A stretch of 64,000 bases of DNA from the NCBI GenBank assembly GCA_016840095.1, contig JAEOSZ010000095.1, forward strand, positions 46,060 to 110,059, given 5' to 3'. Below the pieces are notes generated by a model that saw only the letters and a program-made list of their open reading frames with translations, had not been told where the DNA came from and ran no database searches. Positions within the stretch are counted from its first letter, which is position 1. Each line of letters begins with the position of its first letter. Origin of the DNA: Candidatus Heimdallarchaeota archaeon (GTDB lineage: Archaea; Asgardarchaeota; Heimdallarchaeia; Heimdallarchaeales; Heimdallarchaeaceae). Made by a program: the position numbers and the translations under genes. Of the stretch, positions 1-46,104 are shown piece by piece.

Positions 1-460
1 GGTTAATCTTTGCCTTTGCTGAAACCTCAAAATAGATTGTGTTTAATTTCTCTGCATACTTTTCTGCTTCCTCTTTTGTAACTTCTCTAGATTCTTCTAA
101 ATCTAATTTGTTGCCAATAACAATGACAGGAATGTCTCCTACTGTTTGAATTAGTAAATCATGCCAGAAATCTAGTTTGCTAAAGCTCTCTTTTTTAGTG
201 ATGTCAAAAACAAGTGCTGCAACAACTGAACCCATGAAATATGTAGGTAGAACTGGTAGAAACTTCTCTTGAGAACCTGAATCACCTATAATTAATCGAA
301 TATCTTTACCATCTATCATAGTGTTCCAGATTAGAAAATTTGCTCCTAAAGTAGGTTGATGAGTTATTGGGAATGAATCCTGAGCCTGTCTTAAAGCAAT
401 GGATGTTTTCCCAACACCTGGTTCTCCACATAATGAAACCTTATAGCTAATATCAGTCAT
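1..460 (-). CDS. Rab-like small GTPase (Ras superfamily), 3' end runs off the window
   Basis: Not in the ORF track. Manual translation from ATG at 460: MTDISYKVSLCGEPGVGKTS (G1)...QPTLG (G2)...DSGSQEKF (variant G3)...IGNKLDL (G4)...EVSAK (G5). Confidence 0.92.
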   Translation of the reverse strand, partial: MTDISYKVSLCGEPGVGKTSIALRQAQDSFPITHQPTLGANFLIWNTMIDGKDIRLIIGDSGSQEKFLPVLPTYFMGSVVAALVFDITKKESFSKLDFWHDLLIQTVGDIPVIVIGNKLDLEESREVTKEEAEKYAEKLNTIYFEVSAKAKIN

Positions 461-563
461 TGTTTCTTTACTTCTCTATTTACTGCTTTAAAGCATTATT
501 ATAATCCTAAAGTGATAAAAGAAAATGATTTAAACAATAAACTAAAACAGAGGATGACAAAGC

Positions 564-749
564 ATGTCAGAAAGAGAACAATGTGGAGATTTTGAAATCT
601 ATCAAGATGAAGAAGATTGGTGGGTAGTTAAGAATACTATAACCAAAGTGATTATTGGAAAATTCTTGAAAAAAGATGATGCTTTAGAGAAGATTGCAGC
701 TTTTCTGCAAAGTGATGATGAAACTGCTGAAAGTGAATCTGTTTGCTGA
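564..749 (+). CDS. Small acidic peptide (61 aa), candidate RiPP precursor
   Basis: ATG preceded by GAGG. Stop lies 5 nt before the likely ATG of the radical SAM/SPASM gene. Has WW, two Cys and an acidic tail ending SESVC. Confidence 0.6.
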   Translation: MSEREQCGDFEIYQDEEDWWVVKNTITKVIIGKFLKKDDALEKIAAFLQSDDETAESESVC

Positions 750-2194
750 GTAAGATGGAAGCTAAAGATCAAGTTCTTCAGATATTTTTAAAAGAAAATA
801 AGTATATTCTACTAGATAGTTCTACAAGATTGTTTTGGGTTCTTGAACCAACTAAGATTATACAAGAATTAGCTTCAAAGAAGTTGAGTTTTCGTTCTTT
901 AATTGAGTTACTTGCTAAGAATGACGATTTATATTCAAAGGATTTGTATCAGAAACTAATAAAACTCAGAAAGTTTCACTTTTTTAGCTATACAGAAAAT
1001 AACATTCAAACCCCTCCAAGCACTACACAAACTGATATCAATCACATCTACATAAATCCCTCTTCGGATTGCAATCTAGATTGTTGGTTTTGTTATGCCG
1101 ACAATTTAAGGAAGAGAAAATTACCTAGGCTAGATATTGAAAACATATTGAAACTAATTCAGTCTGTATTAGATTACAAAGAAAGGATAAATTCAACTAC
1201 AGCTTTAGGTGTTTCTATTGGTTTTACTGAAGAACTGAACCTGAATTTTACGATTTTTTTGGAAGTTTCTAAATTTATTGAAAAGATGAAAATTAATTAT
1301 AATCATCCAATTTTTCTTTTTATTCCTTCATCAAATTTGTTGGATGTTTCTGATGAATTTATTGAATTTACAAACAATTATAAATTTTTAACAGTCTCCG
1401 TTGATATTGATAATGAAATACAAATTAGTCAAGTTATCAAAAATCTTGGGGAATTCAATAGCGACGTTAAGAAACATCTAATAATACCTTTTCATTCTAG
1501 AACAACCAACCTTGTAAAGCTGTATTCTAGATTTTCTGAACATTTCAACTTAATCTCTTTAAGACCAGTTAGAGTTAGTATAGATTCAAAACATCCTTGG
1601 AGTCAAGAAAACTTTGAGAATTTTAAAGAAGTAATCTCAAGATTCTATCATGATCTCCAAATGCTGAATGATGAAAATCTTCTCTCAATATTTTCTCTTC
1701 TTGGTCCTGTAGATTATTTCTATCGTTATTTTAAGCGAATCATTGAAAGACAAAAACTTAGTGAAAGATGCACAGCTGGAAAGACAGCTTTTGCCATAAA
1801 TTCTTTGCTTGAAGTTTCTCCGTGCTCAAGTTTATTTAGTTGTGAAAAATTGAATGTAAAAATCCATGACTTTCAAGTGGAAAAAGCACTTCAAAGCTTA
1901 ACGAAAAGATTACCAAATTATAAAGAAACTGAATGTTCAACTTGCTACATATCAAGTTTCTGTGGGGGGCCTTGTATGGATTGGCTTGTAAAACAAGAAA
2001 ATCAAAGGATATCAAATCCGAGCAAAATAGAATGTGATTTCAATAAGTATATTGTTGAGGAATCTTTGTCTTTCATAACTAATTTATCAGTGAATAGGCA
2101 AGCTGTTTTTGAAAAAATTGTAAAAAAAAGAGAACTTAGGAATAGGTTGAACTATCCTCTTTCATTCAATAGTTTTTCTGAGTTTTTTAGTTAA
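743..2194 (+). CDS. Radical SAM/SPASM protein with N-terminal RRE-like domain (peptide-maturase type); likely start ATG 755
   Basis: CNLDCWFC (CxxxCxxC). SPASM cysteines CTAGK...PCSS...CSTC...CGGPC...C. N-terminal beta-strand/helix segment resembling an RRE. Confidence 0.85.
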   Translation: MLSKMEAKDQVLQIFLKENKYILLDSSTRLFWVLEPTKIIQELASKKLSFRSLIELLAKNDDLYSKDLYQKLIKLRKFHFFSYTENNIQTPPSTTQTDINHIYINPSSDCNLDCWFCYADNLRKRKLPRLDIENILKLIQSVLDYKERINSTTALGVSIGFTEELNLNFTIFLEVSKFIEKMKINYNHPIFLFIPSSNLLDVSDEFIEFTNNYKFLTVSVDIDNEIQISQVIKNLGEFNSDVKKHLIIPFHSRTTNLVKLYSRFSEHFNLISLRPVRVSIDSKHPWSQENFENFKEVISRFYHDLQMLNDENLLSIFSLLGPVDYFYRYFKRIIERQKLSERCTAGKTAFAINSLLEVSPCSSLFSCEKLNVKIHDFQVEKALQSLTKRLPNYKETECSTCYISSFCGGPCMDWLVKQENQRISNPSKIECDFNKYIVEESLSFITNLSVNRQAVFEKIVKKRELRNRLNYPLSFNSFSEFFS

Positions 2195-2195
2195 A

Positions 2196-2612
2196 CTAGG
2201 TTAAAGGCCAATCTAATAATGTTGGAAAATCATTTGGAGAGAATTCTAACCAACCAGCAGCTCTGAATATGATTAGCAAAAGCCAACTGAATGTAAACCA
2301 GATTAGCATTGCCCCAAATGTAGCATAAATTGCTCTTCTCTCTGAAATTCCTCCTCCTATTACCCATAAAATCAAGCATATGAAGAAGATTATTATTCCA
2401 AAGGTGATTAGATCTGCAGACCCGAAGAAATCTAAATAACCTCTAAAAACCCAAACACATGCTGCTACAACACCTAAGATTAAGTTTAACCAAGCCCATT
2501 TTCTTACTTCTCTTCTAAACATTATTGTGCACATTATTGCTGAAGCAAAATAGAAGAGGAGTGTATTGAAAACTATAGCTAGAATTATATGTACAGTAGG
2601 ATCTAGTGCCAT
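2196..2612 (-). CDS. Hypothetical membrane protein (about 4 TM)
   Basis: Four hydrophobic stretches. Confidence 0.7.
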   Translation of the reverse strand: MALDPTVHIILAIVFNTLLFYFASAIMCTIMFRREVRKWAWLNLILGVVAACVWVFRGYLDFFGSADLITFGIIIFFICLILWVIGGGISERRAIYATFGAMLIWFTFSWLLLIIFRAAGWLEFSPNDFPTLLDWPLT

Positions 2613-2697: not shown

Positions 2698-3831
2698 ATG
2701 TTTGTTCCACCAAGAAAGCACTTCCATCAGCAATTATGCAACATATGCAATCAAGAGAAGACTCTATCTTCTTCACTAGGTATTTGCAAAACATGTCTCA
2801 TAGAATACGAAATAGATTCAGAGAATTCAGTGATACAAACACATGCTCATTCAAGAGAGAAATTTGTACTCCCAATTAATCCACCAAAAGGTGATTCTTT
2901 TTCCTGTGATCTTTGCAACCACAATTGCAGTTTTTCTAGCAATGACCTTAGTTTTTGTGGTTTAAGATATACAAAGGATGATAAATTTATATCTAGGTCT
3001 TCAAAGAACTCTGCAACTCTGGATTTCTACTTTGACCCATTACCATGTAATTGTTGTGCAGCTTGGTTTTGCCCAGCTGGTACTGGTAAAGGGTATCCAG
3101 AGTATGCTTACAAAGAAGGAAAAGAAACTGGCTATTATAACCTTTCAGTCTTCTTCTATGGTTGCTCTTTTAATTGTTTATTCTGCCAAAATAAAAGTCA
3201 TAAGAATGTAAGGATTGCTTCTAAAGTATCAGTAGAAAGACTTAGTACATCTTTTAAAAACAATAAGAAAGTTTCTTGCGTTTGTTTCTTTGGTGGATCT
3301 CCTGAACCACAATTCGTTTATGCTTTAGAAGTGTCAAAGAGAATTCTAGAAATTGCAAAACAGGAGAAAAGAATAGTTAGAATCTGCTGGGAATGGAATG
3401 GTTTTGGCAATCAAAAATATATAGAAAAAGCTGTTCAAATATCTTTGCAATCAGGTGGCAACATTAAATTTGATTTGAAAGCATGGTCTCCTCAAATTCA
3501 CAAAGCACTAACAGGTGTAAATAATAAGAAGGTACTTGAAAATTTTGAATATGTAGCTAAGAATTTTTTTGAAAAACGTCCTGAACTACCCGTTCTTAAT
3601 GCAACTACACTTCTGGTTCCAGGATATATTGATGAGTATGAAGTGGAAAAAATAGCTTCTTTCATTGCAGAACTTGATCCAAATATTCCATACTCACTTC
3701 TAGGTTTTTACCCTCATTTCGAGTTTTCGGATTTACCATTAACTACTCGAGCTATAGCAGAAAGATCTTTAGAAATTGCATCTAGTTATTTGAACAATGT
3801 CAATATTGGAAATAAACATCTACTTCTTTAG
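2698..3831 (+). CDS. Radical SAM protein, PFL-activase-like / AmmeMemoRadiSam-related family
   Basis: GCSFNCLFCQN, FFGGSPEP, KFDLKAW, TLLVPGY, LLGFYP; N-terminal Cys clusters. Confidence 0.85.
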   Translation: MFVPPRKHFHQQLCNICNQEKTLSSSLGICKTCLIEYEIDSENSVIQTHAHSREKFVLPINPPKGDSFSCDLCNHNCSFSSNDLSFCGLRYTKDDKFISRSSKNSATLDFYFDPLPCNCCAAWFCPAGTGKGYPEYAYKEGKETGYYNLSVFFYGCSFNCLFCQNKSHKNVRIASKVSVERLSTSFKNNKKVSCVCFFGGSPEPQFVYALEVSKRILEIAKQEKRIVRICWEWNGFGNQKYIEKAVQISLQSGGNIKFDLKAWSPQIHKALTGVNNKKVLENFEYVAKNFFEKRPELPVLNATTLLVPGYIDEYEVEKIASFIAELDPNIPYSLLGFYPHFEFSDLPLTTRAIAERSLEIASSYLNNVNIGNKHLLL

Positions 3832-3838
3832 CTAAAAA

Positions 3839-4540
3839 TTGGAATTCTTTTTATACTTAGAACCATTAAGAATAATGATGAAATTTTCATTGAAATTTTG
3901 TTTCTTCTTAATTTCAATATTCTTGTTCATCTCTGCGTCTCAAATTCAATCCTCTTTACCAGAAATTAAAGAAGTTGATATAATTCAAACTAGAATTACC
4001 GAAATAAGCTGGCCCTTTGAATCAGAAGTAGAAAGTGATTGGACTATATTTAGTTGTGACATAACTTTTGAAATTATGAATAATAACTCTGGATTTTATG
4101 TCCACGTTGGAGGATTGCCATACTTCATTCCTAGAATAAACGCTAGTTTCGTAGAAACATCATTAGATGTTGGTATAAGTTACGTCTTCGTTACAATCTC
4201 TACAGATATTCTGATTAAGGAAGGCATAGAGAAGAGGAAAACTGGTTTGTCTTTTTATATCTTCAACTATAGAAACTCCACACTAGCATTGGGTAACTAT
4301 ACAATATGGTATGGTGTTAGAAGTGAACCATTTGATTTTGAGTTGGATCCTTTTTATACTATAATAAATGTAACAGAGAATAAAGTGTTAATAACTCATC
4401 AAGGTACAAACGAAACTGTTACTTATCCAGAGGAAGAAACTCCAAGTACGACAAGTAGCTTTCTATCATTCTCGTCGCTTCTTTTATTAAATTGTTTAGT
4501 GATTTTTAGGAAGAGAAACAAATCTAGAAATTTAACTTAA
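3839..4540 (+). CDS. Secreted/surface protein with C-terminal TM anchor and basic tail
   Basis: Signal peptide (MKFSLKFCFFL...); C-terminal TPSTTSS, hydrophobic stretch, then RKRNK. Confidence 0.75.
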   Translation: MEFFLYLEPLRIMMKFSLKFCFFLISIFLFISASQIQSSLPEIKEVDIIQTRITEISWPFESEVESDWTIFSCDITFEIMNNNSGFYVHVGGLPYFIPRINASFVETSLDVGISYVFVTISTDILIKEGIEKRKTGLSFYIFNYRNSTLALGNYTIWYGVRSEPFDFELDPFYTIINVTENKVLITHQGTNETVTYPEEETPSTTSSFLSFSSLLLLNCLVIFRKRNKSRNLT

Positions 4541-4910
4541 GAAAATGACTTTCGCAATGACTCATACAGTCACTGTTTCCGAAATCTATTACAGGAGATG
4601 TATCAACTAATTTACTCAGCACTTTGTAAATTTCACATTCTGTTTTCTTGTTAATAGAAATAGCAATTCCAATAATTTCACAGGATTGATGCATAGTAAT
4701 TTGATCAATATGCCAGTGTTTTTTCTTTAGTCTTCTTAGATGACGATGAATTCGTGAGGATAACCCTCCAGCTCCAAAAGCACTACCTACATAGAAGTAG
4801 AATCCTTTATTTAAAGTTTTTAATTCACTATGTATATTGATAGTAATTTCTTCAGAGGTGTATAGAAAGAGAATATATGTACCCTTTAAATCTTGAGTAA
4901 ACTCTATCAG
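4524..4910 (-). CDS. GIY-YIG (Uri) superfamily nuclease, DUF123 family; non-canonical start (CTG 4910 proposed)
   Basis: Not in the ORF track. Frame reads KGTYILFL...GFYFYVGSAFGAGGLSSRIHRHLRRLKKKHWHID...ECEI...FGNSDCMSHCESHF, with TAG at 4526-4524. Confidence 0.85.
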   Translation of the reverse strand: MIEFTQDLKGTYILFLYTSEEITINIHSELKTLNKGFYFYVGSAFGAGGLSSRIHRHLRRLKKKHWHIDQITMHQSCEIIGIAISINKKTECEIYKVLSKLVDTSPVIDFGNSDCMSHCESHFLKLNF

Positions 4911-45972: not shown

Positions 45973-46104
45973 TAATTGTTAAAAATAAAAAGGAAATAAA
46001 AATACATCTGTTGAGTTATGTATGTTGATTATCAAAATTCCAAGAAAAAAGATAATATTCTAAAAACATAATTTTAAGAACGATAGAGATTCTTCTAACA
46101 CAAC

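Follow-up and report, generated by a model that had tools for sequence, protein, structure and literature searches.

We analysed a 64,000-nucleotide stretch of contig JAEOSZ010000095.1 of Candidatus Heimdallarchaeota archaeon (assembly GCA_016840095.1, forward strand, positions 46,060 to 110,059), here called the window, and concentrated on two genes close to its start that encode a 61-residue mini-protein and a radical S-adenosylmethionine (SAM) enzyme with a SPASM domain (Table 1). An initial annotation, made from the letters of the sequence, had described a short acidic open reading frame (ORF) that directly abuts the enzyme gene and had read the two as a candidate system for a peptide that is synthesized by the ribosome and modified post-translationally (RiPP). 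The coordinates and sequence features of the pair were found as described. If the enzyme starts at the TTG, the two genes overlap by 7 nt and the start lies inside the Val-Cys-stop codons of the mini-protein ORF. If it starts at the ATG, the start lies 5 nt past the mini-protein stop and the enzyme has 479 residues. The pair is indeed divergent from a Rab-like GTPase gene (PF00071, 6e-37), from which the mini-protein ORF is separated by a spacer of 103 nt.

To see how firmly the two genes are linked we followed them through related genomes. A homologous small ORF was found directly before the enzyme gene, either overlapping it or within approximately 8 nt, in all 27 loci read (L001-L020 and L031-L037), which represent five genera. 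When 47 genomes of the order were scanned with a mini-protein profile, matches were obtained in 28 of the 30 genomes of the family, in all five genera, and in none of 16 genomes from the order's three other families. An enzyme profile (E ≤ 1e-15) applied to 301 Asgard genomes detected 25 of 28 genomes of the family and 0 of 272 genomes from 29 other families. Two genomes of the genus that lack the mini-protein also lack the enzyme (completeness 76-82%), and in a third genome the mini-protein gene is cut by a contig end. The records of the homologues name the family as Heimdallarchaeota or Heimdallarchaeaceae, and the genomes with the pair include two closed ones. In large protein databases both protein families are confined to Heimdall-group records. 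An exhaustive profile search of 1.8 billion representatives returned full-length matches to the mini-protein in no more than three clusters (50% identity), in agreement with the earlier remark that the precursor family was not a recognisable one. The pair stays intact through local rearrangement, with loss of the GTPase gene and inverted flanking genes in L031, L032 and L033. It is a conserved two-gene unit restricted to one Asgard family. The initial annotation had proposed that a small ORF that does not co-occur with the enzyme would speak against a functional pair; in the loci read and in the genome scans the two occurred together.

The mini-protein gene is under purifying selection. For 27 orthologues we obtained a median pN (non-synonymous) of 0.26 and a median pS (synonymous) of 0.69, i.e. 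with synonymous sites near saturation, and a dN/dS of approximately 0.2 in the pairs that were measurable. A nucleotide constraint from the overlapping enzyme start was considered as the cause of the conserved C-terminal tail (see below). It was rejected because the codons for the tail Ser, Val, Cys and Glu as well as the stop codon all vary synonymously, such that the constraint acts on the protein. Upstream of the mini-protein gene a TATA-like ATTTAAA is centred approximately 33 nt before the ATG, following a run that resembles a B recognition element (BRE). An A-rich run followed by ATTTAWA or TTTATA recurs with this spacing to the ATG in the majority of 19 loci compared, from several genera, and this conserved promoter-like element precedes the mini-protein gene only. 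Judged by the archaeal consensus, it is a putative BRE/TATA promoter that would drive a short-leader transcript for both genes.

Table 1. Features at and around the gene pair. Positions are those of the window; residues are those of the enzyme.
Feature	Position	Strand	Remarks
Putative promoter (archaeal)	515-534	+	purine-rich BRE-like run, then TATA-like ATTTAAA (528-534)
Mini-protein gene (61 aa)	564-749	+	ORF; putative substrate
Radical SAM/SPASM enzyme gene (479-483 aa)	TTG 743 or ATG 755 to 2194	+	ORF and family scans
RRE-like domain	residues 5-75	+	three strands, then three helices (AF2 prediction)
Subclade deletion	residues ~36-64; window ~860-950	+	L008-L012, L014, L016-L020
Radical SAM core	residues ~95-330; C106/C110/C113 at nt 1070-1093	+	numbered from ATG 755
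SPASM domain	residues 339-427; nt 1769-2035	+	seven-Cys pattern
Ras/Rab-like GTPase gene, 5' part	2-460	-	PF00071, 6e-37; divergent from the pair
Membrane protein gene (138 aa)	2196-2612	-	~4 hydrophobic helices (by eye); tail-to-tail with enzyme gene
Second radical SAM protein gene (377 aa)	2698-3831	+	unrelated to the SPASM enzyme

The product of the first gene had been taken for a short peptide. Structure prediction with AlphaFold2 (AF2) gave a folded mini-protein instead, with strands at residues 4-7, 10-14, 20-24 and 30-34 and a helix at residues 37-55. The predicted local distance difference test score (pLDDT) was approximately 90 for residues 10-40 and below 50 for the last eight residues, which are unstructured in the model. 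Residues 1-53 form the predicted folded domain and residues 54-61 (nt 723-746) a disordered acidic tail. An alignment of 24 cluster representatives (A1), which are 59-89% identical to the mini-protein of the window (approximately 50% in genome loci that include other genera), shows the conserved motifs C-G-D-Y/F, W-W and G-K-F-x-K-K-x-D-A-L. Invariant in this alignment are G8, W20, G32, F34, K37, D39, A40 and L41 within the domain and E56, E58, S59, V60 and C61 within the tail. Every orthologue ends with E-x-[E/G]-S-[V/T]-C, which in the window reads E56-S-E58-S59-V60-C61. Position 58 is Glu in most genera and Gly in L031 and in a genus with two closed genomes. The acidic linker before this motif varies in length, giving orthologues of 58-68 residues in total. 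A signal or a double-Gly cleavage motif ahead of the tail is not evident. In the genome of the mini-protein no other ORF with the same C-terminus and no second precursor were found. Cys7, which had been put forward as a cross-link site, is nearly invariant; it is unlikely to be an obligatory one, since it is replaced by Ile in one member of A1.

Searches for known relatives of the mini-protein returned little. Pfam and NCBIfam gave nothing above cut-off, a sequence profile against the PDB gave E ≥ 0.75, and Foldseek of the model against the PDB gave E ≥ 0.6. In a wide fold search with VIA the best hit, an MMOD-type subunit, had a Z of 6.6, which lies in the noise range of the tool. Fold and feature searches of the ESM Atlas returned only unnamed, DUF1508 or DUF2188 leads. 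DUF2188 (PF09954) is the nearest Atlas cluster by sequence features (0.88), one source annotates a member as DUF2188, and 7 of the 24 members of A1 match the family weakly (E 0.013-1; best 16.1 bits versus a cut-off of 22), while the mini-protein of the window itself had no DUF2188 match in the Pfam scan. Small DUF2188/YegP-like proteins resemble the mini-protein in size and in predicted sheet-plus-helix topology, and entries of DUF1508/YegP type appeared in the fold searches. However, these fold matches are weak (Z ≤ 6.6, Foldseek E > 0.6), no member reaches the Pfam cut-off, and the sole marginal relative that was returned (P0047) lacks the acidic, Cys-terminated tail and showed no link to a radical SAM enzyme. 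A distant relationship to DUF2188 is possible from these similarities. As a counter-proposal to the RiPP system, the initial annotation had considered a folded DUF2188/YegP-like domain that does not co-occur with the enzyme: the fold is supported by the prediction, the likeness to DUF2188 stayed below threshold, and the failure to co-occur was contradicted by the loci.

The second gene encodes a radical SAM/SPASM enzyme, for which the CxxxCxxC motif and the Cys-rich SPASM domain had been noted correctly. The Pfam model Radical_SAM (PF04055) scored 35.1 bits (cut-off 29.5) and the SPASM model TIGR04085 scored 28.4 bits (cut-off 27), or 31.9 bits in the genome scan. Among 20 orthologues of the enzyme (alignment A2), whose identity to the enzyme of the window falls to 31-38% in other genera, exactly ten Cys are invariant: C106, C110, C113, C339, C357, C394, C397, C403, C407 and C427. 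The SPASM domain has the pattern Cx17C...CxxCx5Cx3C...C, with G342 and the seven Cys invariant or nearly so. When the A2 profile was compared with solved structures, CteB ranked first (E 1.9e-25), and each of the seven SPASM Cys paired with a Cys of CteB in the profile alignment. In CteB the auxiliary cluster 1 is held by C344, C362 and C413 and the auxiliary cluster 2 by C400, C403, C409 and C432 (PMC10177961). Mapped onto this arrangement, C339, C357 and C407 would hold the auxiliary cluster 1 and C394, C397, C403 and C427 the auxiliary cluster 2. With only three Cys ligands the auxiliary cluster 1 would therefore have an open iron. In PapB and Tte1186 the substrate Cys, studied as selenocysteine, binds an iron that most likely is the one of the auxiliary cluster 1 (PMC10177961).

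The GGEP motif for SAM binding had been described as replaced by FTEEL, as a possible sign of unusual chemistry or of a degenerate enzyme. The replacement holds true: both Gly of the GGE motif are exchanged, and its family-wide form is [T/S]-x-E-[I/L]. Degeneration found no support. Because E160 is an invariant Glu that the alignment pairs with the one in the GGE motif of CteB, FTEEL appears from the alignment to be a family variant of the motif and not a sign of decay. The best NCBIfam matches were the models for PapB, CbpB, the nif11 maturase, QhpD and the SCIFF maturase (E 1e-13 to 1e-11), with scores far below the cut-offs, among them those of PapB (NF047865, 49.9 bits versus 340) and the SCIFF maturase (TIGR03974, 42.4 bits versus 425). 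Going by these profiles, the enzyme would work like the maturases of SCIFF, PapB or QhpD type and belongs to no curated family. It forms an isolated clade: the nearest protein outside has an E of 9e-11 compared to 1e-137 within the family, a gap of more than 120 orders of magnitude. This nearest outside enzyme carries a C-terminal PqqD domain and is uninformative on the N-terminal domain discussed next.

The N-terminus of the enzyme had been likened to the RiPP recognition element (RRE) of CteB-type maturases. In an AF2 model built from A2 (mean pLDDT 80) the N-terminal part comprises strands at residues 7-13, 16-21 and 26-30 followed by helices at 34-39, 46-55 and 59-72, all with a pLDDT of 80-89. 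In this predicted model the order of the elements is that of the PqqD-type recognition elements. In known RREs the side formed by strand 3 and helix 3 binds the leader. Foldseek placed CteB on top (E 7e-15, template modelling scores 0.63/0.68), and an alignment with VIA gave a Z of 21.8 and a root-mean-square deviation of 4.2 over 396 of 440 residues, covering residues 5-445 of the model and 1-450 of the CteB chain. As at most 44 CteB residues stay unaligned, most of the approximately 100-residue RRE of CteB must be matched. Among the VIA hits only CteB and TigE match from the N-terminus, while ChlB, anSME, SuiB, PqqE and SkfB match over the core alone. The predicted fold thus makes the N-terminal domain RRE-like, and in this part the earlier comparison with CteB stands; a matching resemblance in sequence to PqqD domains or RREs was not obtained (see below).

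A comparison with characterized systems places the pair next to maturases that form thioethers. CteB with its substrate CteA (SCIFF, Clostridium thermocellum, PDB 5wgg), PapB and Tte1186 have the same order of N-terminal RRE, radical SAM core and SPASM domain. CteB is the best match in sequence and fold, its Cys pattern is identical (CxxxCxxC, three Cys for cluster 1, four for cluster 2), and the small substrate gene lies directly upstream as it does here. Differences are the low identity (16-18%) with scores of 42-50 bits versus family cut-offs of 340-425, the [T/S]-x-E form of the GGE motif, and the archaeal host. The CteA-type substrate is a Cys-rich peptide of 45 residues, whereas here it would be a folded protein of 61 residues with the motif Cys at the very C-terminus.

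Thioether formation on proteins rather than short peptides has been described for RRE-bearing SPASM enzymes in the QhpD/QhpC and the archaeal CrpC/CrpA systems (PMC13692751). QhpD is an RRE-bearing radical SAM/SPASM enzyme that introduces Cys thioethers, including a Cys-Glu S-C-gamma link, into QhpC, a protein that is retained in the cell (PMC13692751). QhpC is the small subunit of quinohemoprotein amine dehydrogenase. The NCBIfam model of QhpD matches residues 12-226 of our enzyme including the N-terminal domain (44.7 bits, cut-off 453). No amine dehydrogenase genes were found near the pair in the family scans of the neighbours, and QhpC carries three rings and a quinone compared to one ring at most here. 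CrpC of Methanococcus voltae combines an RRE, a radical SAM core and a seven-Cys SPASM domain, forms ranthionine links on the adjacently encoded CrpA, and has been proposed to have an open iron on the auxiliary cluster 1 (PMC13692751, 2026). Likened to our enzyme by its description only, it is the closest published archaeal parallel. CrpA is a Cys-rich 29-kDa repeat protein in which Cys precedes the acceptors, in contrast to the 61 residues and the single terminal motif of the mini-protein.

From the gene order, the translational coupling, the co-occurrence and the predicted folds we infer that the mini-protein is the substrate of the enzyme, to which we assign a probability of roughly 0.8. 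With somewhat better than even odds the reaction is a RiPP-like protein modification, probably the closure of a thioether ring in the tail at Cys61. The mini-protein would be made first, as a small fold with a free acidic tail of eight residues that ends with E-x-[E/G]-S-[V/T]-Cys-COOH, and the enzyme would be translated in tandem from the same message. The RRE-like domain would dock the mini-protein and the Cys61 thiolate would bind the open iron of the auxiliary cluster 1. The 5'-deoxyadenosyl radical would then take a hydrogen from a carbon of an upstream residue of the tail, and the thioether ring would close, giving a product that is lighter by 2 Da (-2 Da). The leading candidate for the acceptor is Glu56, five residues before Cys61, followed by Ser59. 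Four residues lie between Glu56 and Cys61, as many as separate Cys and Thr in the Cys-x4-Thr ring attributed to CteA. Glu56 ranks first because, of the invariant side chains, no other has a precedent, which for Glu is the Cys-Glu S-C-gamma link of QhpC (PMC13692751). Such a layout would match the logic of CteB/CteA, PapB/PapA and QhpD/QhpC by analogy, where the substrate is held by a recognition domain and a flexible stretch with Cys extends to the active site.

Regarding the fate of the product, a modified mini-protein that stays inside the cell is most likely, more so than a secreted antibiotic. This is favoured because the pair is not accompanied by a protease, an exporter or an immunity gene, the core never varies, and the folded part is as conserved as the tail. 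The absence of an adjacent protease or exporter had been noted before and was confirmed for all genera: family scans of the neighbours revealed no protease or transporter family beside the pair, though such genes could be encoded elsewhere, and no immunity gene, further tailoring enzyme or cofactor-dependent enzyme accompanied it among the neighbours scanned. The near-invariance of the whole protein and of its six-residue tail in five genera would be expected of a modified protein or a cofactor precursor more than of a classical diversifying RiPP, as far as the conservation pattern can tell. Binding of a metal or a partner by the cyclised acidic tail is a guess. Of the RiPP reading as first proposed, adjacency and co-occurrence of the two genes stand, whereas a leader protease or export system is missing among the neighbours; a split into recognition and core parts is suggested by the predicted fold and the conservation. 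A bolder version of the favoured reading, in which the folded DUF2188-like domain serves as a protein-sized leader and the clade-specific enzyme turns the invariant hexapeptide into a new ring or C-terminal structure with a core cellular role, is unlikely.

Several points weigh against a Cys61 thioether formed by recognition of the mini-protein through an RRE. Cys lies N-terminal to the acceptor in CteA and PapA, while here it would be C-terminal. The fold of the mini-protein and its conservation over the full length would also suit an independent function. The co-occurrence counts overstate independence since the genomes are relatives and approximately 20 kb around the pair are largely syntenic among them. 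The enzyme scores approximately 50 bits versus NCBIfam equivalog cut-offs of 340-520; because it is far below every one of these cut-offs, its chemistry is not readable from family membership. SPASM domains with seven Cys are, furthermore, not confined to thioether formers. For the N-terminal domain, none of 17 sequences matched PF05402 (PqqD) at E ≤ 5, a profile search of the PDB with this domain returned no RRE, and hhalign against a Pfam-validated PqqD domain gave an E of 0.36. Finally, a subclade of the genus lacks approximately 28 residues that correspond to the first two helices of the predicted winged helix (Table 1). The three strands and the last helix with an L-x-K-x-G-F-F motif are kept, and the deletion is derived, since the other genera and L031 retain both helices.

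A different chemistry on the same substrate is the strongest of the alternatives, yet a rather unlikely one. The enzyme could form a C-C or C-O cross-link, act like anSME and turn Cys61 or Ser59 into an aldehyde by oxidation, epimerize a residue, or remove the carboxyl group of the C-terminal Cys, the reaction of MftC on a C-terminal Tyr. Over the catalytic core ChlB (Z 21.2), anSME (19.5), TigE (18.9) and SuiB (15.7) come close to CteB, and the isolation of the clade (E 9e-11 for the next protein versus 1e-137 inside) leaves room for another activity. The V/T-Cys end also recalls the Val-Tyr C-terminus of the mycofactocin precursor. However, the match extends over the N-terminal domain for CteB and TigE only, the three-Cys auxiliary cluster 1 together with the invariant terminal Cys fits thioether formers best, and the model of the mycofactocin maturase is absent among the best 25 of 26 NCBIfam matches.

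Less probable still is a precursor of a cofactor or small molecule comparable to PqqA or MftA, in which the hexapeptide would be cross-linked and then cut off by a protease encoded elsewhere, with the fold acting as a large leader. The unvarying core, the single gene copy and the family-wide, housekeeping-like occurrence of the unit resemble the precursors of PQQ and mycofactocin, whose pathways are founded by SPASM enzymes. What makes this route doubtful is that no peptidase, tailoring enzyme or cofactor-dependent enzyme accompanies the pair, and that the supposed leader is as conserved as the core and predicted to be folded, which is unusual for a part that is discarded.

We consider it improbable that the mini-protein is not a substrate at all but an independent DUF2188-like protein or an accessory partner, with the enzyme acting on another protein, a lipid or a metabolite. 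The predicted globular fold with its weak DUF2188 likeness, the synteny of the whole region among kin and the better conservation of the mini-protein compared to the enzyme (57-89% versus 31-59%) would be in line with this. Translational coupling and co-occurrence nevertheless hold in five genera and through local rearrangements, and the sole part of the mini-protein without predicted structure carries the invariant motif that ends with Cys. In addition, the enzyme has a predicted domain of peptide-recognition type, and the tail-less look-alike (P0047) is only a marginal match. A classical secreted RiPP, i.e. an antimicrobial or signalling peptide freed from its leader, has very little probability. 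In its favour, a short ORF beside an RRE-radical SAM-SPASM enzyme is the standard signature in genome mining, in 11 of the 13 longer loci a small membrane protein is encoded next to the pair, and SCIFF-type ranthipeptides have been reported in quorum sensing (work cited in PMC13635244). Against it, neither a protease nor an ABC or other exporter nor an immunity gene was found in the neighbourhood, the core does not change across five genera and has no paralogous precursors, and the stretch before the tail shows no evident signal or double-Gly cleavage motif.

If the enzyme forms an ordinary Cys-Glu thioether on the mini-protein, the advance would be modest: known enzymology would reach into one more clade and one more family of substrates. 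If the protein-sized leader with a new terminal structure holds true, it would mean a previously unknown modified mini-protein or peptide-derived cofactor in a close archaeal relative of eukaryotes. Radical SAM maturases of peptides and proteins are well studied in bacteria, with few archaeal cases, e.g. CrpC/CrpA (2026). None were found for Asgard archaea in the searchable literature, and full-text searches that combined Asgard or Heimdall with RiPP, SPASM or radical SAM returned nothing on the pair. The DUF2188 literature found is unrelated to it. The putative substrate belongs to no described precursor family. Being small, self-contained and family-wide and having an invariant six-residue target, the pair is an unusually clean system for experiments. 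It allows to ask how a domain of RRE type handles a folded substrate, and it bears on whether a modified protein or cofactor specific to this lineage exists in Heimdall archaea.

Among the neighbouring genes, the one for the 138-aa membrane protein is most closely associated with the pair. It is convergent and adjacent to the enzyme gene in 11 of 13 longer loci compared, in all five genera, and in several loci the 3' ends of both genes overlap. L024 (G001) and L027 (G016) showed no homologue next to the pair, and the protein matched no Pfam family and no named Atlas cluster. It may be a third component of the system, judged by adjacency only and in genomes that are kin.

The second radical SAM protein has a Cys-rich N-terminal region with two CxxC pairs. 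In its core it is similar to glycyl-radical activases and to the AmmeMemoRadiSam enzyme (58.7 bits versus a cut-off of 220). It is 58-77% conserved in the family, and its gene adjoins the pair in two genera. The gene is absent from the neighbourhood in L027, L031, L032, L033, L035 and L036, and the GTPase gene is gone in three of these (L031, L032, L033). Both genes were rejected as parts of the system for their absence from the neighbourhood in several genera.

The Ras-like GTPase gene at the window start is followed, upstream of the window, by genes of two abutting proteins of 398 and 430 aa (L023:6373-9520), for which no Pfam match was found. Across the loci compared these two genes always lie near the mini-protein gene, and in L031 they are inverted and lie directly upstream of the pair on the same strand. 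They were considered as parts of the system and left out despite this proximity. Further upstream, an 856-aa protein with a PCI domain near its C-terminus (PF01399, 4.8e-7; L023:154-2724) is conserved across the genus. Downstream of the second radical SAM gene lies a 233-aa ORF (3839-4540) that is missing from the syntenic region of the seven other genomes of the genus that were compared. It is followed by a DUF123-like gene on the minus strand (4524-4694) with 56 codons here compared to approximately 110-140 elsewhere, which suggests an insertion by which the DUF123-like gene was truncated.

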